Source of the DNA: Candidatus Saccharimonadota bacterium
GTDB lineage: Bacteria; Patescibacteriota; Saccharimonadia; Saccharimonadales; UBA10212
DNA: 64,000 nucleotides
Direction: 5' to 3'
Assembly (NCBI GenBank): GCA_016187125.1
Contig: JACPKF010000002.1
Location: 1,469-65,468, forward strand
A program made the translations under genes and the position numbers. The notes beneath the pieces are model-generated. The model was not told the origin of the DNA, made no database searches, and was given only the letters and a program-made list of their open reading frames with translations. Positions 2,923-62,160 of the stretch are shown one piece after another. Every line of letters begins with the position of its first letter. Position 1 is the stretch's first letter.

Positions 2923-3061
2923 CTAAGCCTCCGGAGGCAATTACCAATTTACAATTCTGCAATTTACAATCAATTTTCAATGACTCAATTTCCAAAGCCT
3001 TGCTTATTTGACCTTTTGGTTCTTGAATGAAAATTGAAAATTGAAAATTGAAAATTTTCAT

Positions 3062-8238: not shown

Positions 8239-8265
8239 CTGCTGCAAGGCTAGGCCTTGCAGCAG
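8239..8265. repeat. perfect 12-bp-stem hairpin (ctgctgcaaggc-tag-gccttgcagcag) beside the RAYT-like gene
   Basis: Read directly; the two arms are exact reverse complements. It lies in the divergent spacer between gmd and the transposase gene. Confidence 0.8.
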
Positions 8266-8291: not shown

Positions 8292-8906
8292 ATGCCCGCT
8301 AAAAATCGAATAAAGATCTATGTGCCAGAGGCTTTTTATCATGTATACAACCGGGGGCTCGACAAACAACTGATCTTTATCGACAATACTGATTATTCTG
8401 TCTTCCTTAGTTTGTTTAAACGATATTTGGCTAATGAAACTGTTAAAGATCCCTCGAGAAGAACCTACGAAAAATTAGCCAACGAAGTAGAACTTCTGGC
8501 CTATTGCCTGATTCCTAACCACTTTCATTTACTTATTTACCAGATTGATTCAATGGGTATGCCAAAACTTGTGCAACGGGTCCTTACTTCATACTCAATG
8601 TATTTCAATAAAAAGTATAAGAGGACTGGACCGTTATTTCAGGATACCTATAGGGCGAGTCAGATCTCTTCGGATGAGTACCTACAACATGTATCACGCT
8701 ATATTCACCTCAACCCTAAAAATTGGCGGCATTGGGACTTTTCAAGTCTAAGATATTATCAGGGCAGTCAAAAAGCCGACTGGATAAATGTAAGCCGTGT
8801 CTTAAGAATTTTTCGTAATAATAAAGAATATTTGGAATTTGTTGCCGATTATGAAGATTATAAAAGATCAATTGATGAAATCAAATACGAATTGGCAGAT
8901 CATTAA
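8292..8906 (+). CDS. IS200/IS605-type Y1 HUH transposase, REP-associated tyrosine transposase (RAYT)-like
   Basis: Motifs YHVYNRG, CLIPNHFHLLI (HUH) and SRYIHLNP (catalytic Tyr region) match the Y1_Tnp/RAYT family. Confidence 0.8.
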   Translation: MPAKNRIKIYVPEAFYHVYNRGLDKQLIFIDNTDYSVFLSLFKRYLANETVKDPSRRTYEKLANEVELLAYCLIPNHFHLLIYQIDSMGMPKLVQRVLTSYSMYFNKKYKRTGPLFQDTYRASQISSDEYLQHVSRYIHLNPKNWRHWDFSSLRYYQGSQKADWINVSRVLRIFRNNKEYLEFVADYEDYKRSIDEIKYELADH

Positions 8907-12122: not shown

Positions 12123-12485
12123 TCACTTTTTTATTCGTTTAGCTAGAACGCCGGCAGCAGACAGTTGTTTTTTTAGCTGGCTAGTTAGAGACTCGACAGG
12201 TTCATCAATAACACTGTCGTGAAAAACCGTTAACACGATATCGTAGGCTTTTAATATATCGTTTTCATTGGTACGCACAACCTCGTAAAGTCTCCGGCGT
12301 ATCCGGTTACGAGCCACCGCCGATTTATTGATCTTACGAGCTACTACTACTGCCAGTCGGTAACTATCCCGCTTGGGATTCTCTAAAACTTTTAGAGAAA
12401 ATGAAGGACCCCGCGTGGTTACACCATGCCTGTAAACATGACGCAAGCTGCCATAGTCATGAAACCGATGCTTCCTTGAAATCAT
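12123..12485 (-). CDS. rnpA: ribonuclease P protein component
   Basis: 120-aa basic protein located downstream of rpmH. Confidence 0.8.
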   Translation of the reverse strand: MISRKHRFHDYGSLRHVYRHGVTTRGPSFSLKVLENPKRDSYRLAVVVARKINKSAVARNRIRRRLYEVVRTNENDILKAYDIVLTVFHDSVIDEPVESLTSQLKKQLSAAGVLAKRIKK

Positions 12486-12642
12486 AAAGATATAGTAACT
12501 AGGAAATAGTAACTAGGAAATAGTATTAAAAAACTTCTGGTTCGAGGTCTTTGCATCCGGAAAATAGCCCGAGATGCGGATTCACTCCGCACCCGGTGCG
12601 ATAAGAAACCGCGAAGGGGTTTCTTATAAGGCGTAAGCCGCA

Positions 12643-12935: not shown

Positions 12936-13134
12936 TTTCCACTTTTATCTAACTTTTGTCCACGTTTTTACAGATGAGCGGGCCGGCTGTGTACAACTTT
13001 TCCCTTCTGGGCGTTGGCTGGCTGGGTAGTATAGTAGTTTAGGCATAAGCTGTGGAAAAGCTCGCAATGATCAGCTATATTAAGAACTGCATTGTAAACA
13101 ACCAGGAAGAGTTGAAAGAGGGTTTTAGTCCACA
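12936..13134. other. candidate oriC part 1: DnaA-box cluster upstream of dnaA
   Basis: Boxes close to TTWTNCACA are TTTTCCACT (12936), TTGTACACA (rc of 12988..12996), a perfect TTTTCCACA (rc of 13051..13059) and TAGTCCACA (13126..13134). Confidence 0.55.
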
Positions 13135-14519
13135 TGCAGGAAAATACACTGTGGCAGGCTGTGCTAGGCGAGATTGAGCTTAGTGTTAGTAGAGGCAACT
13201 ATGTAACGTGGTTCAAAAATACCCAACTTATTCGCTATAAAGATGATGTTGCTGTGGTAGGTGTGCCAAACATTTTTGTTAAAAATCAGCTAGAGCGTAA
13301 ATTTAATGACTTAGTAGTTAATATACTTGCCAAAAATGGTATCCAGCCCTCAAGAGTCGAATACAAAATTCACTCCGGCATTGCGCCAACCACCAAACAC
13401 AACGACGAGGGTATTCTGAAAAACCCAGGCGCTATAACAGGTTTATCAGAGGTAAGCACAGGCCCTAAGTTGAGAATAGCTAATGTTACTCACTCTTACC
13501 GCCAAGGTTTAAACGACCGTTATAGTTTCGAGAATTTTGTTGTTGGCGCTGGTAATGAACTGGCCTACGCTGCTTGCCAAGCAATTGCCGGCAGCCCCGG
13601 TACTCGGTACAACCCTCTGTTCATATATGGAGGTGTAGGGATCGGTAAAACTCATTTAATTCAAGCTGTCGGCAGCGCTATTTTGGCAGCCAAACCAAAC
13701 GCTCGCATTATTTACGCTTCAACAGAACAATTTGTCCAAGAATTTGTGGATGCTCTGCGCTTTAAAAAAAATACTACTGATTTTGCTGGATTTTACCGCG
13801 GCGCCGACGTCTTAATTGTTGATGATGTACAGTTTTTGGCAGGCAAAGAAAGAGTTCAGGAAGAATTTTTTCATACTTTCAATGCTCTTTATCAAGCCAA
13901 CAAGCAAATTATTCTAACCAGCGACAAACCACCCAAGGAGATCCCAACCCTAGAGGAACGACTTAGATCGCGCTTTGCCTGGGGTATGTCTATAGATATG
14001 CAAACTCCGGATTTTGAAACCCGTTGCGCCATCCTGCAAAGTAAAGCTGCGATTCAAAACATAAATTTATCCCAGGCCGTAACTGAGCTTTTGGCAACCC
14101 ATATCCACAGTAATATTCGTGAACTAGAGGGAGCTCTAAACCAACTGTTGGCTTACTGCGAAATGAGAGGTGTCGAGCCAGATATTCAGGTTGCAACCGC
14201 CATGTTTGAGAATGTAAAAAACCGGCCAAAACACATTAACGCTCGCCAAATTATTGAAAGAACTGCTAAACATTTTCATGTTTCTATGGAGGATATTTTA
14301 GGACCAAAGCGAGATAAAGATATAGTAGTCCCCCGTCAAATTGCCATGTATATGCTCAGGTGTGAGTTGCATTTGTCTTTTCCCAAAATTGCTCACGAGC
14401 TTGGCCGCAAAGACCACACCACCGCCATTCACTCTATTAATAAGATCGAGAAGGAAACCGGTTTAGACGGCCCCATCAAGCAATATGTCAGTGAGTTGAA
14501 GGAGAAATTATATGTTTAA
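13134..14519 (+). CDS. dnaA: chromosomal replication initiator protein DnaA
   Basis: Walker A GGVGIGKTHL, then VDDVQFL, and a C-terminal DNA-binding helix region (HTTAIHSINKIE). Confidence 0.95.
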   Translation: MQENTLWQAVLGEIELSVSRGNYVTWFKNTQLIRYKDDVAVVGVPNIFVKNQLERKFNDLVVNILAKNGIQPSRVEYKIHSGIAPTTKHNDEGILKNPGAITGLSEVSTGPKLRIANVTHSYRQGLNDRYSFENFVVGAGNELAYAACQAIAGSPGTRYNPLFIYGGVGIGKTHLIQAVGSAILAAKPNARIIYASTEQFVQEFVDALRFKKNTTDFAGFYRGADVLIVDDVQFLAGKERVQEEFFHTFNALYQANKQIILTSDKPPKEIPTLEERLRSRFAWGMSIDMQTPDFETRCAILQSKAAIQNINLSQAVTELLATHIHSNIRELEGALNQLLAYCEMRGVEPDIQVATAMFENVKNRPKHINARQIIERTAKHFHVSMEDILGPKRDKDIVVPRQIAMYMLRCELHLSFPKIAHELGRKDHTTAIHSINKIEKETGLDGPIKQYVSELKEKLYV

Positions 14520-25713: not shown

Positions 25714-25852
25714 TCGGCCTCCGGCCTTCCATTAACCATTAACCATTTACTATTTACCACACATTTACCATTTGCCATTAACCACTGACCATGGATAACT
25801 GTAAAAGTAGAGAGTATGGTGAAAGGTGAAAAGTGAAGGGTAAACGGGTTTG

Positions 25853-26815
25853 TCATGACAAACCTTCCTTGCCAAAGTGCGGTTGGTGGGCATTACCCTT
25901 GCCTTTGGTTATAATCGGCACGTTCAAATCGCCGGCGTCGCCCAGTTGCTGATTGGCAGCGGTGTCGGGATTATAAGCCTCATAATAAAGCTCAATTAGC
26001 TCCTGCGTATCCAGCGGTATGCTATTGACTCCACACTGCAGCAGTCCCTGCATAACGGAATTTACCCGGTTGCGCAACTCTGTCTTGGCTTTTTCCAGCG
26101 TGCCTTCATCTATAACTACATGCGGTGTTTTGGTACCGCCTAGAAGTTCGGCCACTCCGGTAAAAAAGCCAGTACTTTGGCGAAGAGCCCGCCGGATATC
26201 GGCGTTGGCGTCGGGATAACCAATAACTATGTAAAAACGCTTATCCATGATGTTGGTACTCTGGGCAATTTGGGCTAAAAAATTAATGTAATCTTCCATA
26301 AGTACCCCCAGCAGCATGCTCTCTTGCTGCATACGTAGTTTGTCCAATTTGTCGAGGTAGGGGTCAAGATCTACCTTCTGAGAGCGCATGTATATCTGGA
26401 TCGGAAAATAAAGCGAATTCAAAAAGCCTTGGTAAGCAAATTCCACAGCTTCTCGTTCACTGGAATTCATCAGATCGAAGTTGATGGATTTACACATTAC
26501 TACTGCTCGGAAGGAACCGTCATTTAAAATAGCCAATCCGTCGCGGATTTCGGCGATTTGCAGAGTATTTTGAGTACTGTTCAGGTTGGCAACACCGGTC
26601 TTATCGGGCGTTTGCTTGGCTGGTATAACCTGGGGCGAGACCGCAGCCGCTGGCATTGGCGGCATTATCGGTTGAGTAACATTGTCAGTCGGCAGGGATT
26701 GCGGCGGGGGTTGGGCAGGCGCAGGTGCCGCTGGCAAAGGCGCAGCCGAAGAAGTTGGCGGGGGCTGACCACCCACGGTAGGGGTTATGATGTTCGGCTT
26801 TTGACTAGGATTCAT
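25853..26815 (-). CDS. proline-rich protein whose ordered part resembles the extreme N-terminal domain of Gram-positive VirB4 proteins (possible split VirB4 N-fragment)
   Basis: The first ~70 aa are Pro/Ala-rich and no TM segment is present. The remainder (IAEIRDGLAILNDGSFRAVVMCKSINFDLMNSSEREAVEFAYQGFLNSL...ELIELYYEAYNP) is recalled from memory as VirB4 N-domain-like and has not been verified. Confidence 0.45.
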   Translation of the reverse strand: MNPSQKPNIITPTVGGQPPPTSSAAPLPAAPAPAQPPPQSLPTDNVTQPIMPPMPAAAVSPQVIPAKQTPDKTGVANLNSTQNTLQIAEIRDGLAILNDGSFRAVVMCKSINFDLMNSSEREAVEFAYQGFLNSLYFPIQIYMRSQKVDLDPYLDKLDKLRMQQESMLLGVLMEDYINFLAQIAQSTNIMDKRFYIVIGYPDANADIRRALRQSTGFFTGVAELLGGTKTPHVVIDEGTLEKAKTELRNRVNSVMQGLLQCGVNSIPLDTQELIELYYEAYNPDTAANQQLGDAGDLNVPIITKGKGNAHQPHFGKEGLS

Positions 26816-27031
26816 CCCAGGCCTCCTTCGGAGGCAATTATCAATTTACAATTTACAATTTTCATTAAATTTACATTTAACAGTCTCCAAACATAGCTTA
26901 GGGCTTGAAGTTGAGTGCAAGAATTTTTTTTGGGCTGTGGACTGTTAGCTGTGGACTGTGGACTCATTTTTCTCCCACCCTCTTTGGTTATGCGGCTTGC
27001 CCGCCTAAAATCTCTAAGAAATTTTGATGGG

Positions 27032-27949
27032 TCAGTGCAAAGATATGACTACTTCGTTAGGACCGATCTGCTGCACGGCGTTTTTACGATTGGCTAATCT
27101 GGCAATCGAAGCCACACTTAAATCATTACCGCTTTGGGCTAGCTCCAGTTTATCAGCTCTAGCGGTAGCTGTCACGGGAGAAGAACTGGCCGAAGCTCCG
27201 GCTTGATTTTGGTCATTGCCATCAGCCGCCGCGGCGGTCGTTGAAGCCGAGTCAGCCGTAATAGTTGGCTCAACCGGCAAGGCCGCCTGAGTTCTGGCAG
27301 CCGAAATAGTATGAGAAATTTTTTTCCGGCGCTGATCATCTTGCTGCTGCATCAAACCGCTAAAATATTGGGCCGTCGGATTATTTTTCTCGTCCATGAT
27401 GTCATCGGCCGGATTTATATCTACGTCAATTGCCGCTTGGTTCAAGGTATTGGGGGCCACCAGGCGGTCGCTCATAGCTTCAAATGCCGGGTTGGGTTGA
27501 AGGTTCAGATTTTTTATAGCCCAACCCCGGCTATCCAGTGTCGCCGTTAAAGTCTGCAATCGGCTGCGAACCTCGGTCTCGCTGAGGCCCTTAGTGTGAA
27601 GCTTGGCGATTTTTTTAGGCGCTGTTATACTCACCAGTTTACTAATTCCGGTCTGATCCCAGAGGCGCTGGCGCGGTTTAACTAAAAAGCGTAGATGAGC
27701 CAGCAGCCAAACCTCCGTCGGCTGCTGCCGCCCTAAAGGCGATGCCAGTACGCCAAACAAGGCCATGGGAAGTACTAAAAGCAGTATCACCAGCCAGCGC
27801 CAGCTACCGACATCTGGGGCCAAAACTAGTCTAAAATCAATAAAAGCGCAAAGCCCGGCAATAACAGCGTAAATAAAGCCCTTTAGCGTCAAAGGTCCCA
27901 GGAGCTTATCTTCGGACTCAATATCTTGTATTACTTTATATACGGCCAT
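27032..27949 (-). CDS. PrgI-family (VirB3-like) T4SS membrane protein with a long C-terminal extension
   Basis: The N-terminus YKVIQDIESEDKLLGPLTLKGFIYAVIAGLCAF followed by two TM segments matches the PrgI family signature (..DI..EDK..GPLT.KQF.Y). Confidence 0.7.
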   Translation of the reverse strand: MAVYKVIQDIESEDKLLGPLTLKGFIYAVIAGLCAFIDFRLVLAPDVGSWRWLVILLLVLPMALFGVLASPLGRQQPTEVWLLAHLRFLVKPRQRLWDQTGISKLVSITAPKKIAKLHTKGLSETEVRSRLQTLTATLDSRGWAIKNLNLQPNPAFEAMSDRLVAPNTLNQAAIDVDINPADDIMDEKNNPTAQYFSGLMQQQDDQRRKKISHTISAARTQAALPVEPTITADSASTTAAAADGNDQNQAGASASSSPVTATARADKLELAQSGNDLSVASIARLANRKNAVQQIGPNEVVISLH

Positions 27950-42507: not shown

Positions 42508-42695
42508 CGACCCGTTCGACAAGCTCAGGGTCGTCCTGAGTGAAATCGAATGGACGACGAGCACCCGTAGCTCCCGCCTACGCCACCCCCTTCGTTATCT
42601 CCTTCGCTGAAGCTACGAAGATCAAGGAAGCTTCCTCCTTCGCAAATGCTTCGGAGAACAAATCGGAGGTCAAGAAGGCTTCGGCGGGCAGGCAG
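42508..42695. repeat. composite of two dispersed repeat families in the tRNA-Arg leader
   Basis: 42508..42562 resembles 7125..7181 and 49957..50013. 42581..42695 is ~90% identical over shared blocks to 55939..56029 inside murE. Confidence 0.7.
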
Positions 42696-42719: not shown

Positions 42720-42794
42720 GTCCCCATAGTTTAATGGATAGAACACTGGCTTGCGGAGCCGGCGATAGAGGTTCGAATCCTCTTGGGGGCACCA
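42720..42794 (+). tRNA. tRNA-Arg with genomically encoded GCG anticodon, CCA encoded
   Basis: Hand-folded: acceptor GTCCCCA/TGGGGGC, anticodon stem CTGGC/GCCGG, loop TTGCGGA, T-arm AGAGG-TTCGAAT-CCTCT. Confidence 0.7.
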
Positions 42795-43756: not shown

Positions 43757-44020
43757 AAATACTCTTCTTTATTTATATCATTAAAAATTATTTATCAAGC
43801 TCTAGTTTAGCATCATTCTAAAAAAAAGTCAATCAGCTATCCCTGAACCTCAAAACCTCCGTCAAAGTCCATCGCCCAAGGTACAACTCATCCGTTGTTT
43901 ACAAGTTGTTTACAAGGAGCCTCCTTGTAAACGGCAAAAATATTGTCTAATAAATTATGTTTTGAGATTCAGGTAGCTATGGCTTAAATAAGAACTCTGA
44001 ATTGGTATTATAGAAAATGC

Positions 44021-45232
44021 ATGTTAAAAAGCGCTCACAATTTGGTTAAAAGTGTTGGTAAAAAGCTGAAGCTTGACGATGCGACCGTAGAAAAGCTTCT
44101 GAAGGCGGACGCGGAGCACCAGTTTGAAATTAGTTTGAAAAGTGGGAAGCAGTTTAAGGCTTACCGTGTCCAGCATAGCAATAAACTAGGCCCCTATAAA
44201 GGCGGAATCAGATTCCATCCTCGGGTGAATCTGGATGAAATAAGAACTCTGGCAACTTTAATGAGTCTTAAAACTGCCGCTGTGGGGCTGCCGCTTGGTG
44301 GCAGCAAAGGCGGCGTGACGGTGGATCCAAAGGTACTTACTCAAGACGAACTCGAGGAACTAAGTCGTAAGTATGTACAGCACCTGCAATCTCATATAGG
44401 ACCGGCTAAAGACGTCCCTGCTCCTGATGTAAATACCAATGCCCAAATCATGGATTGGATGATTGACGAATACCAAAATCTGACTGGCAACCTGAGCCAG
44501 GCTAGTTTTACCGGTAAAAGTCTGACTAGTGGCGGCAGTGAAGGCCGTGATGAAGCCACCGGCCGCGGCGGCGTAATTGCCCTGCGCGAACTCCTTATGC
44601 TACAAGGATTATCCTTGCAGCATAAGGGGGATCAGGTATTGCGTTTTGCCGTTCAGGGATTTGGCAATGTGGGTTCGAATTTTGCAATCGTCGCTGAGCA
44701 GGAGCAGCCCAACTGGAAGTTAATTGCCGCCAGTGATTCTGGTGCCACTATTTTTGACTCAGAAGGACTTAGTGCCTCTAGTCTGGCGGCCTTTAAAAAA
44801 CAAGCTGGCCGCTTTAGCCAGTACAAAAATGCTCAAGTCCTAAACAGTGACGCAATATTGTTCCTGGAAGTTGATGTTTTGGTCCTAGCGGCCCTGGAGG
44901 ATGCCATAACAAATAAGAACATGCAGCAGGTTAAGGCCCGACTTATCGTTGAGCTAGCCAATGGGCCGATTAACGAAACCGCCTATGGTTACTTGGCCAA
45001 AAAAGGCATAACTGTTTTACCGGACATTATCACCAATGCCGGAGGCGTTATTGTAAGTTATTTGGAGTGGCTACAAAATAAGGCTGATGAGCGTTGGACG
45101 CGCGCCAAAGTTAACACCGAGCTAGAACAGTACATGATTAAAGCCATAAGCGAGGTTTATAAAACTTCTAGTTCACAAAATCTGACACTCAAAGAAGCGG
45201 CAATTATGCTAGCTCTCAAACGCCTGACTTAA
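44021..45232 (+). CDS. gdh: Glu/Leu/Phe/Val dehydrogenase family (glutamate dehydrogenase-like)
   Basis: Catalytic region KGGIRFHP...LPLGGSKGG and the Rossmann motif AVQGFGNVG. Confidence 0.85.
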   Translation: MLKSAHNLVKSVGKKLKLDDATVEKLLKADAEHQFEISLKSGKQFKAYRVQHSNKLGPYKGGIRFHPRVNLDEIRTLATLMSLKTAAVGLPLGGSKGGVTVDPKVLTQDELEELSRKYVQHLQSHIGPAKDVPAPDVNTNAQIMDWMIDEYQNLTGNLSQASFTGKSLTSGGSEGRDEATGRGGVIALRELLMLQGLSLQHKGDQVLRFAVQGFGNVGSNFAIVAEQEQPNWKLIAASDSGATIFDSEGLSASSLAAFKKQAGRFSQYKNAQVLNSDAILFLEVDVLVLAALEDAITNKNMQQVKARLIVELANGPINETAYGYLAKKGITVLPDIITNAGGVIVSYLEWLQNKADERWTRAKVNTELEQYMIKAISEVYKTSSSQNLTLKEAAIMLALKRLT

Positions 45233-45393
45233 ACAATGTTCGATGTCTCATAGAATAAGGCGAGACCAAAAGCAATGCAGTATTGCTATTTATTTGCTAC
45301 AAGGATAATCCTTGTAGCAAATCTTGTAGCAAATAAATAGTCTCTAGACTACTGACGGAGAGTGCTTTTACAGTTAATAAATTTAGTAGTCTG

Positions 45394-48541: not shown

Positions 48542-49408
48542 TTGGGTAGTGTTACCAATGAAACAGAATTGGGTAAAAAATTGCAGCTGGCTCGCAAACG
48601 TGCCGGCTTAACCCAACAACAGCTATGCCAAAAAGCCGGTCTGTCTTATTCAACCCTGGCCAAAATCGAACGCGGCGCTATTCGTTCCCCCTCGGTATTT
48701 ACGGTTGCCTCCATAGCCAGCGCCACTAGTACGCCTTTAGAAGACCTGCTTGATTTAGATACCCAAAGTGGCGGCTCCCCTGCCCCGCCGAACGCCAAAA
48801 AACGCTCCAAAACCGGAATCAGATTTGTTTATTTTGATATTGACGGCGTTTTGATAAGGTTTGTTATGCACGCCTTTCCTAAAATAGCTCGGGACCACGG
48901 GCTTCAACCAGACGTCGTCGAAAATGCTTTTTGGCGTCACAACGACTCGGTTTGCAGGGGGGATATTAGCCTGGAAGAGTTTAACTCAGTCGTTGGCCAA
49001 GAGCTCGGCATAAGCGGCTTCAGTTGGCTAAAATATTATTTTGAATCAGCCGAACCAACTCCCGGAGCCATCGATTTTTTGAAATGGGCAGCCCAACACT
49101 ACGACGTCGGCCTTATCAGCAACCATATGCCCGGTGAGACCGAAGAGTTATTCAAACGCCAGATTATCCCTGAGCTGGACTTTAAAACCGTGGTTGATTC
49201 TTGCAAGGTGGGAGCTGTCAAGCCAGAGGCCAAAATTTATGAAACCGCCACTGAGCTGGCAGCCGCTACGCCACCAGAAATTCTGTTGATTGACGATAAC
49301 CGGACCAATTTAACGGCTGCCGACCGTGCCGGCTGGCAAATATCCTGGTTTGACCAGTTTCAACCGGCCGAGAGTATCGAGCGGGCCAAAGCTCAGCTGG
49401 AGTTTTAA
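48542..49408 (+). CDS. fusion protein: N-terminal XRE-type HTH domain plus C-terminal HAD-superfamily hydrolase domain
   Basis: HTH region LGKKLQLARKRAGLTQQQLCQKAGLSYSTLAKIERG. HAD motifs are FDIDGV (I), LISNH (II), K-containing (III) and LIDDNRTN (IV). Confidence 0.7.
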   Translation: MGSVTNETELGKKLQLARKRAGLTQQQLCQKAGLSYSTLAKIERGAIRSPSVFTVASIASATSTPLEDLLDLDTQSGGSPAPPNAKKRSKTGIRFVYFDIDGVLIRFVMHAFPKIARDHGLQPDVVENAFWRHNDSVCRGDISLEEFNSVVGQELGISGFSWLKYYFESAEPTPGAIDFLKWAAQHYDVGLISNHMPGETEELFKRQIIPELDFKTVVDSCKVGAVKPEAKIYETATELAAATPPEILLIDDNRTNLTAADRAGWQISWFDQFQPAESIERAKAQLEF

Positions 49409-52251
49409 ATATTTTTGACAGCTGTTTGGAAAGCCGCGATTTCGTGTTTGATAGCTTCTAAAAGTTGCTGCTCTTCGACTAATTGAGTTTTTGTTTGTTT
49501 GACTAATTCCTTCGGCGCTTTTTGAGTGTAAGATTTGTTAGATAGGCGCTTTTGCAGCAGCTTTATGGCGGCTTCTCGCGCCTTTTGGGAGGTTTTTAGC
49601 CGGCCTAAGTAGGCTTGAGCGGTTTCCCGGTCAATGTCCAGCCAAGCGGCGTATTTAGTGCCGGTTAGTCGTAAGCCCTTAGCTGCTTTAGCTTCTTTTA
49701 CCTGGCTTAAGCGTCCTAAACTTTTGACTAATTCTTTATTTTCATCAATCAGCGGCGCGGCTTTATAAAACAGCGCCGGTTTAGTAACACCAACATTGGC
49801 GGCTATTTGCCTGGACTGGGTAATAATTTCTTGGAGCTCTTTGAATTGGCTAACCTTAGCTAGATCAACTTTCTGAAATTTTGGCCAAAGCTGCGAGGCC
49901 AGCAAACTCTCCTTTTCCAAGGCCAGGCCTTGGAAAAGGTTTTTATCCTGAGCAGAGTCGCCCATTCGACCTTGCTCAGGGCGGTCCTGCCCATTCGACG
50001 AGTTCAGGGCAGCCTTAGTGTTAATCGAAGGCTGAGTTTTGTCGAACGGATCGAAGGATTGCCAGATGGTTTCGGTAACAAATGGAGCAAATGGGTGGGC
50101 TATTTTTAGAGTTGATTTAAGCACGAAGGCCAGCACTTCTCTGTTGGGCGTTGTTTTGCTGACTTCTACGTACCAGTCGGCAAAATCATCCCAAACAAAA
50201 TGGTACAGCGCGTCATAAGCTTCGCTGAAACGGAAATTATCCAAGTCCTCAGAAACAGCCCTCGCCGCAATACTTAACTTGTTAAGTATCCAATGATCGG
50301 CAACCGATTTTGGCATAACACTACCCCTGTTATGACCTAAGGGTACGACCCTTAGACTTCTTCTACCTATGTTGTTCTCCTCGCCCTCTAAGGGTCGTAC
50401 CCTTAGGTCGTCTATGTAGCGGGCGATGTTCCAGAGCTTGTTAACAAAATTACGGTTGGCTACGATCTTTGACTTTCTTACTCGCTGGTCAGTTCCTGGA
50501 GAAGTGCCGGCTATCAAAGCCAAGCGCAGAGCGTCAGTGCCGTATTCATTTATAACTCCAACTGGATCAACGATGCTGTCTGGATCACTTTTGCTCATTT
50601 TCTTGCCGGTTTCTGTCCGCACTAGGCCATGCAGATAAACGGTTTTAAATGGTACTCGGCCAGTAACATAAGTAGTGGCTAGAATCATTCGGGCAACCCA
50701 GAAAAAGAGAATTTCATAAGCTGTTTCTAAGACATCAGTCGGGTGGTAAGTTTGATAGTCAATACTTTTGGCTAAAAGATCATCCAGCGATAGCGAAAAG
50801 TCCTTTGTCAGTTCTGGATCGACTAAGGTGCTCCAGGTCCAAAGCGCCGAGGAAAACCAGGTATCCAGCGTGTCCGGATCTTGCTGCCAGCCCTCTTCCT
50901 GCGGCGGCCTAACGCCTACATAAACACTGTCTTTGCTGTGGACCGCGGACTGTGGACTGTGGACTGATTCCTGTCTGTACCACACCGGAATCTGATGTCC
51001 CCACCAGATTTGACGGCTGATGCACCAGTCCCGCAGATTATCAATCCAGTGGTAGTAAATTTTCTCGAACCGTTTAGGCACAATCTTAATATCGCCATCT
51101 TCAATAACAGCTCTCATGACTTCCTTGAGGCTGCGTTTTTGACCCTTCCAATCTACCGCCGGCCGGTTGACATCAATAAACCATTGCAGTTTGATTTGTG
51201 GTTCAATAACACCTTTGCCGCGGCTATTTAAAGCGATGTTATGGGTGTATGTCTTGTCAATGCTGACCAATAAATTTTTCTGACGCAATTTTTCCACAAT
51301 TTTAGGCCGGGCTTCATCTATTTTTATAGCTTCGAATTCGCCGGCGATAGCTAAAAGCTTTCCATCAAAATCAATAATTTGTTCTTTTTCCAGACCGTGC
51401 CGCTCGGCGATTTCAAAGTCAGTGCGGTCGTGCCACGGCGTGATGGTCATCACCCCTGTTCCAAAGGCTGGGTCCACGGCCTCGTCTTTAATAATGGTGG
51501 CGGTAACTGGGCCATTGATCCATTCACATTCAAAAGTGTCGCCGGTTTTATATTGAGCGTAGCGTTTGTCACCGGGATGCATAACGACGTATTTGTCGCC
51601 AAACTTGGTTTCGGGACGGGCCGTGCTTATCTTAAAAGGGCCGTACTGTAAGGTGTAAAGTGGCGACTCCTCTTCTTTGTAAATAACTTCATCGTCAGAA
51701 ACCGTAGTTTCCAGATTGGGGTCCCAATTAACTATCCGATGGCCCCTGTAAATTAGCCCGTCTTGGTACATTTTTATAAAGACTTCGTTAACGCAACGGT
51801 TAAGTGCCTCGTCTAAGGTGTATCGCAGCCGGCTCCAATCGGCGCTGGCGCCCATAGCCCGCATTTGCTTAAGCATTGTACCTCTGTTACGATCGGCAAA
51901 CTCCTTGACCTTGGCAACAAAGGCTTCGCGGCCCAGTTCGTGTTTATTGGTCCCCTGCTCTGCCAGTTGTCGCTCAACTACAGAATTTGTAGCAATCGCT
52001 GCGTGGTCGGTTCCCGGTAACCAGAGAGCGTCGTAACCCACCTGGCGCGCATGCCTGATTAGAATGTCTTGAAGCGTTATGAATAATGCCCCGCCAAGGT
52101 GGAGGGTGGATGTTTCATTGGGGGGTGGCATGGCTATAGAGAAATGAGGTTTGGAGCTACTCGGATCAGCTATAAAGACGCCGCTCTTCTCCCAAAGGGC
52201 ATAAATATCGGCTTCATAATCACCTGCAACATAGGCTTTAGGTAATCCCAT
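49405..52251 (-). CDS. valS: valine--tRNA ligase carrying several repeat-derived in-frame insertions
   Basis: PPPNETSTLHLGGA (HIGH region with an HLGG variant), LWLPGTDHAAIAT, KMSKS (GKKMSKSD) and a C-terminal coiled coil; 948 aa. Confidence 0.9.
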   Translation of the reverse strand: MGLPKAYVAGDYEADIYALWEKSGVFIADPSSSKPHFSIAMPPPNETSTLHLGGALFITLQDILIRHARQVGYDALWLPGTDHAAIATNSVVERQLAEQGTNKHELGREAFVAKVKEFADRNRGTMLKQMRAMGASADWSRLRYTLDEALNRCVNEVFIKMYQDGLIYRGHRIVNWDPNLETTVSDDEVIYKEEESPLYTLQYGPFKISTARPETKFGDKYVVMHPGDKRYAQYKTGDTFECEWINGPVTATIIKDEAVDPAFGTGVMTITPWHDRTDFEIAERHGLEKEQIIDFDGKLLAIAGEFEAIKIDEARPKIVEKLRQKNLLVSIDKTYTHNIALNSRGKGVIEPQIKLQWFIDVNRPAVDWKGQKRSLKEVMRAVIEDGDIKIVPKRFEKIYYHWIDNLRDWCISRQIWWGHQIPVWYRQESVHSPQSAVHSKDSVYVGVRPPQEEGWQQDPDTLDTWFSSALWTWSTLVDPELTKDFSLSLDDLLAKSIDYQTYHPTDVLETAYEILFFWVARMILATTYVTGRVPFKTVYLHGLVRTETGKKMSKSDPDSIVDPVGVINEYGTDALRLALIAGTSPGTDQRVRKSKIVANRNFVNKLWNIARYIDDLRVRPLEGEENNIGRRSLRVVPLGHNRGSVMPKSVADHWILNKLSIAARAVSEDLDNFRFSEAYDALYHFVWDDFADWYVEVSKTTPNREVLAFVLKSTLKIAHPFAPFVTETIWQSFDPFDKTQPSINTKAALNSSNGQDRPEQGRMGDSAQDKNLFQGLALEKESLLASQLWPKFQKVDLAKVSQFKELQEIITQSRQIAANVGVTKPALFYKAAPLIDENKELVKSLGRLSQVKEAKAAKGLRLTGTKYAAWLDIDRETAQAYLGRLKTSQKAREAAIKLLQKRLSNKSYTQKAPKELVKQTKTQLVEEQQLLEAIKHEIAAFQTAVKNI
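50336..50407. mobile_element. 72-bp MITE-like element with perfect 20-bp terminal inverted repeats, inserted in frame in valS
   Basis: cctaagggtacgacccttag ... ctaagggtcgtacccttagg are exact reverse complements. 72 nt is 24 codons, which encode LRVRPLEGEENNIGRRSLRVVPLG in a variable part of ValRS. Confidence 0.65.
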
Positions 52252-53691: not shown

Positions 53692-54891
53692 CTACATAGA
53701 TAGACCTGGATTAACCTCGAGGGAGTACGGATCGGCGGGTTTTTGTTTTATAGCGGCTTTAAAGTAGCCTAAACTGGCTACCATGGCGGCGTTGTCGGTG
53801 CAAAGTTTGATATCAGGGAAAAAGACCGGAGTCTTGGCGAATTTTTTGGCCACTGTTTGGCGCAAAAGCTGATTGGCGGCAACACCGCCGGCGATAACGA
53901 TAGAATTTGGCTGGAATTCTTTCTCAGCTTTCTTTAATGACTCAACCAGTGTTTCAATAGCAATATACTGAAAACTGGCGGCTATATCGGCTTTCTGGGT
54001 CTCATTTAAGGCTTCAGGCAGCTTAGTAGAAGGAAAGGTGTAATCATGACCACTTTGTTCTTGAGCTACTCTTAAAACCGCTGTTTTTAGGCCGGAGAAA
54101 CTAAAAGGATAAGCATTAGTGTGATAGGTTGAACCTATCACATTGTCGAATTTGGCTTTGGGGAACTTAAAAGCGTGAGGATTACCTTTGGTAGCAACTC
54201 TAGCGACGGATTGGCCACCGGGGTAGGGCAGGCCGAGCATTTTGGCTACTTTATCAAAAGCTTCGCCTACGGCATCATCTGTGGTTTGGCCTAAAACTTG
54301 GTAATTCATATGGCTTTTCATCAACACCAGCTGGGTGTGGCCACCGCTCACAATAAGCGCCAGAATAGGAAATTCTGGCTGCTTATTGTTCAAGCTAATA
54401 GCTGTTAGCTGAGAGCTGTTAGCTTTTTCGGTGAGGAAGGCGGCGTAAATGTGGGCCTGGACGTGATCAACAGCATACACGGGTTTGTTTTTGGCAATAG
54501 CTAGAGTCCGGGCCGTTAAAACGCCAATCAGTAAACTGCCAAGCAACCCTGGGCCCTGAGTAACGGCGATAGCATCAATCTGCGACCAAAGGTCGTCAGA
54601 TTGAGGAATTAGCAATTGGGAATTAGCAATTAGCTTTGATTTTTTACTATTTTCTAATTTCTGATTTCTATTTTCTCCGAAAGCATCCCGTAGGGCTTTG
54701 TCTATCACCGGGATGATGCTTTCTATGTGGCTGCGGGCGGCGATTTCTGGCACCACTCCTCCGAAGGCGGCGTGCAGATCTACCGAGCTGGCCACCACAT
54801 TGCTGAGCAGTTTAAGCCTCCGCCGGCCGGCGGATTCAACTACTGCCGCGGCCGTCTCGTCACAACTGGTTTCTATTCCTAAAACCTTCAT
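53692..54891 (-). CDS. tsaD: tRNA N6-adenosine threonylcarbamoyltransferase TsaD with two low-complexity insertions
   Basis: MKVLGIETSCDETAAAVV, VSGGHTQL and GLPYPGG. At 399 aa it is ~60 aa longer than usual. Confidence 0.9.
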   Translation of the reverse strand: MKVLGIETSCDETAAAVVESAGRRRLKLLSNVVASSVDLHAAFGGVVPEIAARSHIESIIPVIDKALRDAFGENRNQKLENSKKSKLIANSQLLIPQSDDLWSQIDAIAVTQGPGLLGSLLIGVLTARTLAIAKNKPVYAVDHVQAHIYAAFLTEKANSSQLTAISLNNKQPEFPILALIVSGGHTQLVLMKSHMNYQVLGQTTDDAVGEAFDKVAKMLGLPYPGGQSVARVATKGNPHAFKFPKAKFDNVIGSTYHTNAYPFSFSGLKTAVLRVAQEQSGHDYTFPSTKLPEALNETQKADIAASFQYIAIETLVESLKKAEKEFQPNSIVIAGGVAANQLLRQTVAKKFAKTPVFFPDIKLCTDNAAMVASLGYFKAAIKQKPADPYSLEVNPGLSM

Positions 54892-54995: not shown

Positions 54996-56396
54996 TTGGT
55001 TAACGGGATGAATCCGAAAAAGCTGGCTCGCAAGGTCTTGCCGCGGCGCGGCGTGCGCCTGGCCGAGGAGACCTATCGGAAGGGCAGGGTATATAGCCTC
55101 CAAGCTCTCAACCTATTTCCGGCCAGAGGCCTGCGGGTAATAGGCGTAACCGGAACAAATGGCAAGACTACAACCTGTAATTTTATAAACGAAATGCTGA
55201 AAAACGCCGGCTATAAAACGGCTCTGTACAGCACAGCCATCATAGAAATTGATAGCCAAAAGCGACTTAATGAATCTCACCGGACGGTGCCGTTGACCGC
55301 TGAGCTGATAGGGTTTTTCAAAGATGCCGCTAAAGCCAAGGTGGATTTTGTGGTTATGGAAGTCACCAGTATGGCTCTTGACCAGCATAAAATGATCGGT
55401 ATTCCGGTGGAAGTGGCGGTTATGACAAATCTTAGTCAAGAACACCTTGATTACCACGGGACTATGGAAAATTACGCGGCGGCCAAAGCCCGGTTATTTA
55501 ACAAATATATGCATCCCAAATATGCAGTGCTAAACCGTGACGAGCAGTGGTATGAGTATTTTGCCGGGCAAGCCTCCGGCGAAGTTATTTCTTATGGCAA
55601 AGACCAGGCCAGCTCCGTCAGGATTGTTAATATAAGCCCTACAACTAACGGCAGCGATTTCAGTCTGGAAATTGATGGAAAAAATCTGGATGCTCATAGC
55701 CAATTAGTTGGCGAATTTAATGTTTATAACGCCGCGGCGGCAGCTGCCGCGGGCTTGGCGATTGGCCTAGATAACCAACAAATCACCAGCGGTATTGCAA
55801 CTCTAAAAGGGGTGCCTGGGCGCATGGAAAAAATTGAAGCCGGGCAAGACTTTGAAGTGATTATAGACTACGCTGTTACACCCGACGCTCTAGCCAAAGC
55901 CCTGCAAGCTACAGCTCAAACCACAAAGGGCCCTCCATCGCCACCTCCTTCGCTGAAGCTACGAAGATCAAGAAAGCTTCCTCCTTCGCAAGTGCTTCGG
56001 AGGACAAGAAGGCTAGGGAGGGCAGGCAGGGTAATAGTTGTTTTTGGCGCGACGGGAGACCGTGATAAGTCTAAGCGGCCGCTTATGGGTGAAGTGGCTG
56101 CCAAATATGCTGATCGGATTTTTTTAACTGATGACGAAACCTATAGCGAAGATCCGGCCGCTATCCGCCGGGCCGTCTATGAGGGCATTTTGGCAGCTGG
56201 TGGCGCCACAAAAACCACCGAAATTGGCGATCGCCGCCGGGCGATTAAAGCCGCTTTTAATGACGCCAAACCAGGCGACACCGTGCTGCTAACTGGTATA
56301 GGCCATCAAACGACTCGCAATATGGGCGGGCACGAGGAGCCCTGGAATGAGCACGAAGTTGCCAAAGAGCTATTGAGCCAATTAACTAAAACCTAA
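54996..56396 (+). CDS. murE: UDP-N-acetylmuramoyl-L-alanyl-D-glutamate ligase (MurE) with a repeat-derived insertion
   Basis: GVTGTNGKTTT, DYAVTPDAL and VFGATGDRDKSKRP. The amino-acid substrate (DAP or Lys) cannot be told by eye. Confidence 0.85.
   Translation: MVNGMNPKKLARKVLPRRGVRLAEETYRKGRVYSLQALNLFPARGLRVIGVTGTNGKTTTCNFINEMLKNAGYKTALYSTAIIEIDSQKRLNESHRTVPLTAELIGFFKDAAKAKVDFVVMEVTSMALDQHKMIGIPVEVAVMTNLSQEHLDYHGTMENYAAAKARLFNKYMHPKYAVLNRDEQWYEYFAGQASGEVISYGKDQASSVRIVNISPTTNGSDFSLEIDGKNLDAHSQLVGEFNVYNAAAAAAAGLAIGLDNQQITSGIATLKGVPGRMEKIEAGQDFEVIIDYAVTPDALAKALQATAQTTKGPPSPPPSLKLRRSRKLPPSQVLRRTRRLGRAGRVIVVFGATGDRDKSKRPLMGEVAAKYADRIFLTDDETYSEDPAAIRRAVYEGILAAGGATKTTEIGDRRRAIKAAFNDAKPGDTVLLTGIGHQTTRNMGGHEEPWNEHEVAKELLSQLTKT
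55939..56029. repeat. dispersed repeat copy inside the murE coding sequence (paralog of 42581..42695)
   Basis: Shared blocks are ctccttcgctgaagctacgaagatcaag[a/g]aagcttcctccttcgcaa[g/a]tgcttcggag and caagaaggct...ggcaggcag. In murE it is translated as a basic/Pro-rich segment (PPSLKLRRSRKLPPSQVLRRTRRLGRAG). Confidence 0.75.
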
Positions 56397-60913: not shown

Positions 60914-61116
60914 CACGCACATACCCATTTACCGATTTTTCATTTAACAAATTAATTATCAATTTTCATTTGCCAAACTTTTAAAAAATGGTCAATGGTA
61001 AATAATTAGTAAATTGTTAAATGGTAAATTTGCAACCTTCGCCCGGCCGTCGTAGCCAGGGCTACTATGGCGGAGTCGGCTAGCCGTATTACGGCTAAGT
61101 AGGCTAAAATTAAATC

Positions 61117-62160
61117 ATGCTAGATGATCTCAAATACATACATCAAAAGGACTCGCAGGACGCTTTGGGAATTGCCCAGCGACAATGGCAACAACTCGAA
61201 CACAAATTTGAGGTGACAGGTGACAGCTTACAGGTGACAGGTGGATTCTCTAGCGTCGTGTATGCGGGTATGGGTGGGTCCGCCTTAGCAGCCCTTTTAA
61301 GTAAAAGTTGGCCGGGTTATAGTGTGCCGCTTGAAGTTTGCCGCCAGTATCATGTCCCGGCTTACGTTTCGCTGGGGACGCTATTTATAGCTGCCAGTTA
61401 TTCTGGCAATACCGAAGAAACATTGTCGGCTCTGGCGGAAGCTCAAGGCAAAGGCGCGACGATTGTGGTAATCGCCAGTGGTGGCCAGCTGCAAGAAATC
61501 GCTAAGGCTAAAAGCTATCCATTTATGATGATTCCTAAAGTTGAGCAGCCGCGCTATGCTGTTTTGTATAACCTCAAGGCGCTGGTTACGATTTTGGAGG
61601 CGGCTAGTTTGCTTGAGAAAGAGCAGGCCAGTGCGGCTATTACCCAGGCGGCCAATTTTTTGAAAGACAAAGTCACCGCCTGGATCGCCACTGTCCCAAC
61701 TAAGGACAACCCCGCCAAAAAATTGGCCGAGGATTTAGCAGGCAAGTCGGTAGTAATTTACGGCGGTCCGCTGCTGGCGCCGGTAGCTTATAAATGGAAG
61801 ATAAATTTTAACGAGAATGCCAAAAACGTGGCCTGGTGGAATGAATTTCCGGAATTTAACCATAACGAAATGATTGGCTGGAGCAGCCACCCGGTAGAAA
61901 AACCTTACGGAATTGTGGAGCTGCGCAGCAATTTAGAACATAAACGAGTTCAGCGCCGGTTTGAAGTAAGCGCCAAGCTACTTTCTGGCCGCCGCCCCGC
62001 ACCGTATATAGTTCAAGTTGAAGGCAACACTCTGCTGGAGCAACTGCTGTGGGCTTTGGCTTACGGAGATTTTGTCAGTATTTATTTAGGCATCCTGAAT
62101 GGACTTAATCCGGCGCCAGTTGAACTGGTCGAAAAATTCAAAACCGAACTTAACAAATAA
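61117..62160 (+). CDS. bifunctional phosphoglucose/phosphomannose isomerase (SIS-domain PGI/PMI)
   Basis: SYSGNTEETL, and NEFPEFNHNEMIGW is characteristic of the PGI/PMI family. Confidence 0.8.
   Translation: MLDDLKYIHQKDSQDALGIAQRQWQQLEHKFEVTGDSLQVTGGFSSVVYAGMGGSALAALLSKSWPGYSVPLEVCRQYHVPAYVSLGTLFIAASYSGNTEETLSALAEAQGKGATIVVIASGGQLQEIAKAKSYPFMMIPKVEQPRYAVLYNLKALVTILEAASLLEKEQASAAITQAANFLKDKVTAWIATVPTKDNPAKKLAEDLAGKSVVIYGGPLLAPVAYKWKINFNENAKNVAWWNEFPEFNHNEMIGWSSHPVEKPYGIVELRSNLEHKRVQRRFEVSAKLLSGRRPAPYIVQVEGNTLLEQLLWALAYGDFVSIYLGILNGLNPAPVELVEKFKTELNK

Follow-up and report, generated by a model that had tools for sequence, protein, structure and literature searches.

Tandem repeats of seven-nucleotide units have been known from bacteria since 1990, and their excess in bacterial genomes since 2007; an explanation of their origin, spread and function is lacking. 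The short tandemly repeated repetitive (STRR) sequences of heterocystous cyanobacteria have the units CCCCAGT (STRR1), TTGGTCA (STRR2) and CAACAGT (STRR3). Among other short repeats, the Rickettsia palindromic elements (RPEs), which Ogata et al. are said to have described in 2000, reportedly measure ~100–150 bp and lie in frame within protein-coding genes. The small dispersed repeats (SDRs) of Nostoc punctiforme, reportedly treated by Elhai et al. in 2008, are said to be very small, non-tandem mobile repeats of 21–27 nt whose mobility was deduced from insertions into conserved sequence. Heptanucleotide repeats of heterocystous cyanobacteria were named STRR by Mazel et al. (1990), at least as retold in PMC4692102, and Mrazek et al. 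(2007), as recounted there and in PMC4679880, found the 7-nt class over-represented among long simple sequence repeats (LSSRs) and proposed that it arises by polymerase slippage. Xanthomonas carries GGGAATC repeats and Nostoc GGGGA(T/C)T repeats (PMC4692102). TAACTGA direct repeats occur in Beggiatoaceae, Cyanobacteria and Bacteroidetes in sets of 2–6 copies, mostly just upstream of start codons; their distribution across phyla is patchy, copies inside open reading frames (ORFs) are occasional, and the question of their mobility has been raised (MacGregor 2015, PMC4679880). Repetitive extragenic palindromic (REP) elements and REPINs are mobilized by the REP-associated tyrosine transposases known as RAYTs (PMC3116915, PMC3733652). 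Here we analyze a 64-kb stretch of a Saccharibacteria genome (hereafter, the window), in which one ~30-nt array of the heptamer GTCCACA lies in frame in valS, the gene for valine–tRNA ligase (ValRS), and a second lies in an intergenic spacer of a type IV secretion system (T4SS) cluster. Both are probably copies of one ~30-nt module (four GTCCACA units plus 2 nt), belonging to a genome-specific repeat family of the STRR/LSSR type that would be copied between loci. A literature search for heptamer repeats in Saccharibacteria or Patescibacteria returned nothing relevant.

The two copies and the features that hold them are as follows:
50935–50966, minus strand: valS copy, an in-frame heptamer-array module, (CA) GTCCACA GTCCACA GTCCGCG GTCCACA GC
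26934–26965, minus strand: intergenic copy, A GTCCACA GTCCACA GCTAACA GTCCACA GC
49405–52251, minus strand: valS, valine–tRNA ligase of 948 aa, host of the in-frame copy; identical to the NCBI entry "valine--tRNA ligase [Candidatus Saccharibacteria bacterium]" (P0001) and homologous to 1GAX
26816–27031, minus strand: T4SS intergenic spacer of 216 nt with two heptamer arrays, GTCCACA and, at 26842–26879, TAAATTG

The preliminary description had matched the valS sequence gctgtggaccgcggactgtggactgtggactg (50935–50966) to the spacer sequence gctgtggactgttagctgtggactgtggactc (26934–26965) at 26 of 32 positions, and we reproduced this match in the window sequence. The copies align in one register; in both, units 1, 2 and 4 are perfect and unit 3 is deviant (GTCCGCG in valS, GCTAACA in the spacer), and both end off-pattern in GC, where the unit predicts GT. 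Tandem Repeats Finder (TRF) calls the valS copy at 50936–50966 (period 7, 4.4 copies) and the spacer copy at 26931–26964 (period 7, 4.9 copies). If the two were low-complexity stretches that resemble each other by chance, the bare count of the word TGTGGAC would be no surprise: the eight exact occurrences in the window, six of them within these two loci, are not significant against an expectation of 4.2, with 10 of 100 shuffles reaching eight, and a single 26/32 pair is expected ~0.1 times per window. Longer words contradict this account. The 15-mer GTCCACAGTCCACAG, allowing up to three mismatches, has 8 matches versus 0.78 expected (0 of 100 shuffles reach 8), and an all-against-all comparison found 39 pairs of 32-mers with at least 26 matches, versus one event in eight dinucleotide shuffles (0.125 per shuffled window). 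The 32-mer similarity exceeds the shuffled background, and the valS/spacer pair is therefore part of a real excess of short dispersed repeats. Since same-contig unit sharing, shared imperfections and replication of the pattern at five other loci (L121, L123, L127, L171 and L195; below) also speak against chance, we regard it as extremely improbable.

In valS, the array encodes S429-VHSPQSAVH-S439 between HQIPVWY and DTLDTWFSS; the codon layout bears out the SVHSPQSAVHS translation proposed earlier. The window protein has 948 aa, versus ~866 aa in typical Saccharibacteria orthologs, and carries three lineage-specific insertions. Words of the VHSPQS or VHSPQST type were found in the window protein and in 0 of 119 other Saccharibacteria ValRS (n = 120). 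In these 120 proteins, the loop from PVWY to xYVG is 4 aa (n = 44), 9 aa (n = 46), 14–19 aa (n = 11) or 117 aa long (n = 8, a weakly ASCH-like domain), and all of the 14–19-aa loops show a 7-residue periodicity. Thermus ValRS (1GAX) has a Cys-rich segment at this position, indicating that the loop is variable across bacteria. An AlphaFold2 model of the window ValRS, built with the 120-sequence alignment (mean predicted local distance difference test [pLDDT] score 83.5, predicted template-modeling score 0.80), falls below pLDDT 50 at three stretches only, 429–439, 624–642 and 735–777, which are exactly the three insertions, and it places residues 429–439 at the tip of a hairpin between strands 423–426 and 442–445. 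The valS copy is shown to be a lineage-specific, in-frame, stop-free insertion of 10–11 codons, at what the model predicts to be the tip of a β-hairpin in a variable, disordered loop. It is most likely a tolerated passenger without a role in aminoacylation.

The module is one of many such arrays in the window. Across the 64 kb, TRF found 17 period-7 arrays. Intergenic DNA, ~14% of the window, holds 12 of them, in agreement with the earlier view of the valS copy as a repeat of intergenic type sitting in frame. Perfect period-7 arrays of at least two copies number 16, versus 3.6 expected, and at least 15 different units occur (TAAATTG, TAAATGG, AATTTTC, GCTAATT, AGGTGAC, AGGTTAC, TAATAGC and others). 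Five of the 17 are intragenic: the valS copy, three in tsaD and one in a gene of the phosphoglucose isomerase (PGI) family:
54607–54634 and 54643–54676, minus strand: adjacent tsaD arrays, AGAAAAT-type and GCTAATT GCTAATT CCCAATT GCTAATT, in frame
54399–54424, minus strand: third tsaD array, called by TRF
61211–61243, plus strand: array AGGTGAC AGGTGAC AGCTTAC AGGTGAC AGGTG, in frame, near the N terminus of a bacterial PGI-family gene

The window tsaD encodes 399 aa, versus 355–387 aa in relatives. At the tsaD site of the two adjacent arrays, the Saccharibacteria loci L125 and L127 likewise have array insertions, built of differing units, and L123 and L126 have none.

Arrays of the same form recur in the same ValRS loop of other lineages of the candidate phyla radiation (CPR). 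We fetched the DNA of eight ValRS loci of the 14–19-aa loop class, and seven Saccharibacteria valS loops can each be written as 4 heptamers plus 2 nt, or 30 nt:
Window: GTCCACA ×4 (third GTCCGCG) GC
L121: GCTAAGA GCTCACA GCTGACA GCTGACA GC
L122: GTCGAAA GTCGAAA GTTGAAA GTTGAAA GT
L125: GTCGAAA ×4 GT
L123: GGGGATA GGGCTGA GGGGGTA GGGGATA GT
L126: AGGGATA AGGTAGA GGGTAGA GGGGATA GT
L127: GGTGACA GGTTAGA GGTTAAA GGTGAGA GT
L124 (eighth locus): longer, ACAGCGT/CAGCGGG, ~4.7 units

More distant CPR lineages came from a metagenome scan: L171, L172, L177, L192 (two adjacent arrays) and L195 have arrays in this loop too. In all, heptamer arrays of ~30 nt, differing in their units, occupy the loop in no fewer than 12 CPR lineages. 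In the family-A DNA polymerase gene, polA, of another Saccharibacteria genome, GTCCACA ×4 lies in frame. We did not retain a common codon phase for all valS arrays, as the periodic region spans 30–33 nt and permits more than one phase layout.

As in the window, the unit of the valS-loop array is found again at another place on the contig in five of these loci:
L121, 160–185: AGCTGAC
L123: perfect GGGGATA ×4.6 in an intergenic spacer, identical to the valS array at 27 of 31 positions, with the same first and last bases
L127, 2299–2328: AGGTTAG
L171: CGTAATC ×6.3
L195: TCAGGGT ×4.6

For 179 arrays from 1.16 Mb of CPR loci, the canonical unit is shared by 13 of 475 array pairs on the same contig, versus 38 of 15,429 pairs between contigs (odds ratio 11.4, p = 2e-9). 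Some pairs share imperfections as well: in L136 and in L143, two arrays are identical at 23 of 23 positions including the deviant unit, and in L206 at 29 of 30. Loci with an array in the valS loop are also richer in arrays elsewhere (median 0.27 versus 0.056 per kb, p = 0.008). Loci within a genome share a unit much more frequently than loci of different genomes do, and the copies often agree in register, length and imperfections.

These observations bear on a first rival, in which the arrays arose independently in situ as microsatellites through slippage with a 7-nt preference, and the shared GTCCACA reflects coincidence or a mutational or compositional heptamer preference. Heptameric SSRs are indeed over-represented in many bacteria, with polymerase slippage proposed as their origin (PMC4692102, PMC4679880); the units vary widely (183 CPR arrays have 142 canonical units), 17 arrays in the window allow for some sharing of units, and the flanks of the valS array hold ACAG-like words. 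Independent slippage does not account, however, for the 11-fold enrichment of same-contig sharing, for copies that agree in register, length, end bases and even deviant units, or for the three exact unit-class pairs among the 17 window arrays, where our own calculation for uniform units gives ~0.12. Stepwise growth by 7 nt within an essential gene would, moreover, pass through frameshifted, lethal intermediates, and array lengths cluster near 30 nt with no monotonic decrease (below). We consider independent origin in situ rather unlikely.

To place the module in a wider context, we scanned 185,579 species genomes for GTCCACAGTCCACA-N(0–14)-GTCCACA, finding at least 120 loci (L001–L120), versus ~4 expected by chance by our own estimate. 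The matches listed, on which the following statements rest, come from Verrucomicrobiota, Bacteroidota, Cyanobacteria, Planctomycetota, Omnitrophota, Acidimicrobiia, Saccharibacteria and other Patescibacteria, and several genomes have many GTCCACA loci each. In cyanobacteria, GTCCACA arrays abut arrays of GTCCCCA (STRR1), GTCAACA (STRR3) and TAATGAC. Variants within arrays preserve GTC..CA and differ in the two central bases (GTCGACA, GTCGGCA, GTCTACA, GTCAACA), and some genomes show a strict alternation of two units, such as (GTCCACA GTCGGCA)n in L014. These variants had suggested a general CAG/CAGT core (a GTCNNCA superfamily), an idea we rejected: CAG/CTG occurs in 27 of 142 unselected CPR units, versus 14.7% expected.

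Period 7 stands out. In 894 kb of GTCCACA-bearing loci among these matches, arrays of at least three perfect copies number 196 at period 7 and no more than 15 at any other period from 4 to 12. Array lengths called by TRF peak at 30–32 nt (37 of 138 arrays), with few above 35 nt. In the 1.16 Mb of CPR loci, perfect period-7 runs cluster at 14–20 nt (peak 20), with a second cluster at 28–35 nt (12 runs) and only four runs at 21–27 nt; at the control periods of 5, 6, 8, 9 and 10, perfect runs simply decay, without a tail like that at 28–35 nt. This two-cluster shape is not what a pure slippage equilibrium would give.

Intragenic arrays are in frame and stop-free. Where a unit contains a stop, one unit deviates exactly there: in tsaD, GCTAATT becomes CCCAATT, removing TAA, and in L172, AAGTTGA becomes AAGTAAG, removing TGA; GTCCACA has no stop in any frame. 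Judged from the sequences, the intragenic arrays are under selection against stop codons and are probably read by ribosomes. Among exact-unit arrays of the CPR loci (L121–L208) and the window, the pattern unit–unit–deviant–unit inside coding sequences (CDSs) outnumbers its mirror image by 10 to 2 in the direction of the gene's sense strand (p ~0.04). Mere stop avoidance was considered as an explanation of the deviant third unit and set aside, as it holds for tsaD GCTAATT and L172 AAGTTGA but fails for GTCCACA, GAATCAA and AAATCCC.

The recurrence of arrays in one loop could also reflect a single ancient insertion into the ValRS loop, inherited vertically, with units replaced by concerted evolution or ectopic conversion and with many losses; the spacer copy would then be a donor or recipient of conversion. 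All seven Saccharibacteria valS arrays do lie at one position and measure 30 nt, the flanks RQ[EGA]...[KQ]D[SK] are common to the window, L121, L122 and L123, and the sister proteins P0004 and P0006 both carry arrays, with different units. The tsaD array of the window retains a single CCCAATT, the unit found in the L125 array at that tsaD position, and both GTCCACA copies end in GC, as does the GCTNACA array of L121. In a neighbor-joining tree, however, array-bearing ValRS are scattered over at least seven places among sisters with 4-aa loops, and a single insertion would need many independent and precise losses. Arrays also occur in distant CPR with a different, zinc-knuckle type of loop (L171, L195), and perfect arrays such as that of L125 look young. 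The tree favors repeated gains, and we hold one old insertion to be unlikely.

Compared with the described systems, the module has the features of a heptanucleotide LSSR or STRR sequence in the broad sense: a tandem 7-nt unit, an excess of period 7, a mostly intergenic position and a unit found at several loci. Like STRR sequences, it is dispersed over one genome; written as CCACAGT, its unit differs by a single base from STRR1 and likewise from STRR3, and the CPR contig L136 has TTGGTCA arrays. It is unlike STRR1–3 in the strict sense in that CCACAGT (GTCCACA) is none of the three units and its host, by ValRS identity, CPR-like genes and the T4SS cluster, belongs to Saccharibacteria and is no heterocystous cyanobacterium; its family differs further in having many units per genome, short arrays (mode 30–32 nt) and in-frame recurrence in essential genes. 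Long-SSR heptamers share the period-7 excess and the intergenic enrichment, but the slippage origin proposed for them predicts neither the genome-specific, register-sharing units nor the ~30-nt mode seen in CPR arrays. TAACTGA repeats, too, are direct repeats of a heptamer, with a fitting copy number, and other window arrays likewise adjoin a Shine-Dalgarno (SD) sequence; the GTCCACA copies, in contrast, sit 115 nt upstream of a start codon and inside a CDS, and have a different unit. The TAACTGA study concerned a single unit, with intra-ORF copies at protein ends or in hypothetical proteins (PMC4679880), whereas the window and CPR arrays have many units, lie inside conserved essential enzymes and occupy one loop in many lineages.

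The in-frame position invites further comparison. As with RPEs, short repeat DNA is found both intergenically and in frame at a fold-compatible surface position of a conserved protein; unlike them, the module measures 30–33 nt and consists of direct repeats only, without inverted symmetry, and the array does not pair in the RNA fold. The reported SDRs resemble it as dispersed elements of a few tens of nucleotides but differ from its 30–32 nt of tandem heptamers. With REP/REPIN systems, the window has in common many short dispersed repeats; it also has a candidate RAYT-like Y1 gene, and inverted array pairs that could form hairpins occur in L022 and L136; the GTCCACA module itself, however, has no hairpin, no inverted symmetry and no GTAG/CGTC tag. 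The module was rejected as a phase-variation (contingency) SSR, a class whose unit changes reversibly switch non-essential genes, mostly surface-related ones: its host is the single valS, whose frame would be lost with the gain or loss of one or two units. The module acts like an STRR/LSSR heptamer repeat and, in its loop occupation, like an RPE; it is not a strict STRR1–3 sequence, a TAACTGA repeat, a REP element or a contingency locus.

How might such modules spread? Whole modules would pass between loci by ectopic templated repair, gene conversion or a trans-acting enzyme, and replication slippage would then homogenize the units within an array. In essential genes, only copies that have a length divisible by three, are stop-free and sit in a permissive surface loop would escape purifying selection, a filter that would account for the repeated gain of arrays by the same loops of ValRS and TsaD; intergenic copies might or might not influence expression in cis. 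We put the chances about even that ~30-nt modules move or are copied as units, with slippage or conversion homogenizing them. More tentatively, and with doubt outweighing belief, the ~30-nt modules (4 units plus 2–4 nt) might be distinct, very small mobile or conversion-driven cassettes of CPR and several other phyla, written or copied whole and repeatedly colonizing loops of valS, tsaD, polA and pgi, with the third-unit deviance and the orientation bias as their footprints; their length of ten codons would then allow them to colonize permissive loops of essential genes repeatedly and independently.

Several points weigh against the copying of one module between valS and the spacer. No copying event was observed and no mobilizing enzyme was identified; only two GTCCACA modules were seen, within a 64-kb window of the genome; and the protein database holds no near-identical strain of the window ValRS, the next being ~73% identical, so that the empty site is unseen. 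Arrays could be built in situ by a polymerase that prefers to slip by 7 nt (Mrazek et al. 2007, as conveyed by PMC4692102 and PMC4679880). The recurrence in the ValRS loop may go back to a single old insertion that underwent concerted evolution and was lost many times, in place of repeated gains, and the 30-nt mode seen with TRF depends in part on the score threshold, which does not affect the perfect-run analysis. Finally, the two copies are identical except in unit 3, where 5 of 7 positions differ; simple copying followed by divergence does not explain this, and partial overwriting of pre-existing arrays fits it better. The spacer's GCTAACA unit and terminal GC belong to the GCTNACA family, which is common in the window and forms the valS array of L121. 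Together with the CCCAATT unit in the window tsaD, they suggest the partial overwriting of existing arrays in place of a clean insertion.

A conserved loop of an essential single-copy gene that holds ~30-nt arrays with units differing by lineage and matching arrays of the same genome offers a concrete handle on heptanucleotide repeats. It permits gains and losses to be dated on the ValRS tree, block insertion to be told from stepwise slippage, and gene families that co-vary with array density to be sought. For CPR annotation and protein-family work, it means that part of the "extra" loops of housekeeping proteins is ribosome-read repeat DNA and not evolved protein sequence.

The spacer copy lies 67 nt past the stop codon of a PrgI-family gene and 115 nt ahead of the start codon of the next ORF, within a T4SS cluster that includes a VirB4-like ATPase, a PrgI-family protein and T4SS pilins. 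Its neighbors are:
27032–27949, minus strand: PrgI-family gene, 5′ neighbor of the spacer copy
25853–26815, minus strand: weakly TraC-like ORF, 3′ neighbor of the spacer copy

Directly ahead of the start codon, the spacer has an SD-containing hairpin, GCCTCCGAAGGAGGC. The GTCCACA array is unpaired in the predicted RNA fold of the spacer, whose z-score of −0.5 is unremarkable, and a promoter and terminator scan gave no match overlapping the array. A search of the window against Rfam returned four tRNAs only.

This setting bears on another rival, a functional cis-element, in which arrays are RNA or DNA platforms for a repeat-reading protein (S1, cold-shock and CsrA-like proteins have been suggested for TAACTGA) and the valS copy is an internal regulatory site. 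Many intergenic arrays of the window do immediately precede an SD hairpin and start codon, and their orientation to the gene is constant (TAAATTG at 2945 and 26842, TAAATGG at 25729 and 60986), GTCCACA arrays in the matches listed across phyla are sense to the neighboring gene in 79 cases and antisense in 33, and regulatory roles have been proposed (PMC4679880; bioRxiv 10.1101/2022.06.06.494920). Against this, at least 15 units within 64 kb argue against one specific reader protein, the spacer GTCCACA array lies away from the SD, 115 nt from the start codon, there is no RNA structure signal in the spacer, and the ValRS loop of other lineages has unrelated units or, in most, no array at all. 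The 79/33 bias, based on crude ORF calls, could equally follow the replication strand. The valS and spacer copies lie on the same replichore and strand, so that transcription-linked and replication-linked orientation are inseparable in the window. We judge a dedicated cis-element improbable.

Two of these 5′-untranslated regions, 2928–3006 and 26825–26900, form a 79-nt repeat (78% identity); the first precedes the gene for an ABC-transporter ATPase and the second a T4SS ORF. In both, a TAAATTG array (mRNA sense) is followed by an SD-sequestering hairpin (GCCTCCGGAGGC / GCCTCCGAAGGAGGC) and the start codon. Analogous modules with TAAATGG arrays (mRNA sense) lie at 25729–25792 and 60986–61029.

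The other two insertions in valS are of different kinds. The second, at 50332–50406 (residues 616–640), is a 75-nt in-frame block, predicted to be disordered (624–642), in which a pair of 19-nt palindromes, each the reverse complement of the other (CTAAGGGTACGACCCTTAG ... CTAAGGGTCGTACCCTTAG), flanks 32 nt and is read as LRVRPL...LRVVPL; "LRVVP"-like insertions occur at the same ValRS site in P0007, P0008 and P0011. The third, at 49906–50052 (residues 734–782), adds ~49 aa, with pLDDT below 50 for 735–777, and contains the palindrome AAAACCTTTTCCAAGGCCTGGCCTTGGAAAAGG at 49904–49946. Palindromes with the same CAAGG..CCTTG core lie at 8239–8265, 43904–43936, 44589–44620, 45287–45327 and 28807/29507, and these may form a REP-like family.

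At the PVWY loop itself, eight Saccharibacteria ValRS (P0008, P0010–P0012, P0014, P0022, P0046, P0063; loci L163 and L165) carry a domain of ~112 aa with a weak match to ASCH (20.6 bits, cutoff 21.2). P0007 and P0008 are nearly identical save for the presence or absence of this domain, indicating that the site is polymorphic for a whole domain too.

Closely spaced inverted array pairs, which are potential hairpins, occur in L136 (6835–6901 and 16592–16686) and L022 (6156–6220). The pairs in these two loci are AAGTGCC/ACTTGGC, AATGACC/ATTGGTC (the STRR2 unit TTGGTCA, on a CPR contig) and GTCCACA/TGTGGAC.

The RAYT-like gene of the window, at 8292–8906 on the plus strand, is an ORF of 204 aa with HUH (PNHFHLL) and YIHLNP motifs and a perfect 12-nt hairpin just upstream. 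It matches Pfam Y1_Tnp with 42.8 bits, above the cutoff, and the NCBIfam model for REP-associated tyrosine transposases with 43 bits, below the 80-bit cutoff; one other homolog was found in the 2.06 Mb examined.

Genes of the origin region in the window are a jag-like gene (KH/R3H), yidC and rnpA on one side and dnaA, dnaN and recF on the other. A tandem repeat of 14 nt, ATAGTAACTAGGAA ×2.4, lies at 12492–12525 between rnpA (12123–12485) and dnaA (13134–14519), where the origin is presumed to be. In bacteria, the tRNA-Arg anticodon ACG (read as ICG) is the rule and GCG is unusual; the tRNA-Arg at 42720–42794 on the plus strand has the anticodon GCG and adjoins a 76-nt dispersed repeat (42586–42661) that is 89% identical to 55932–56007.

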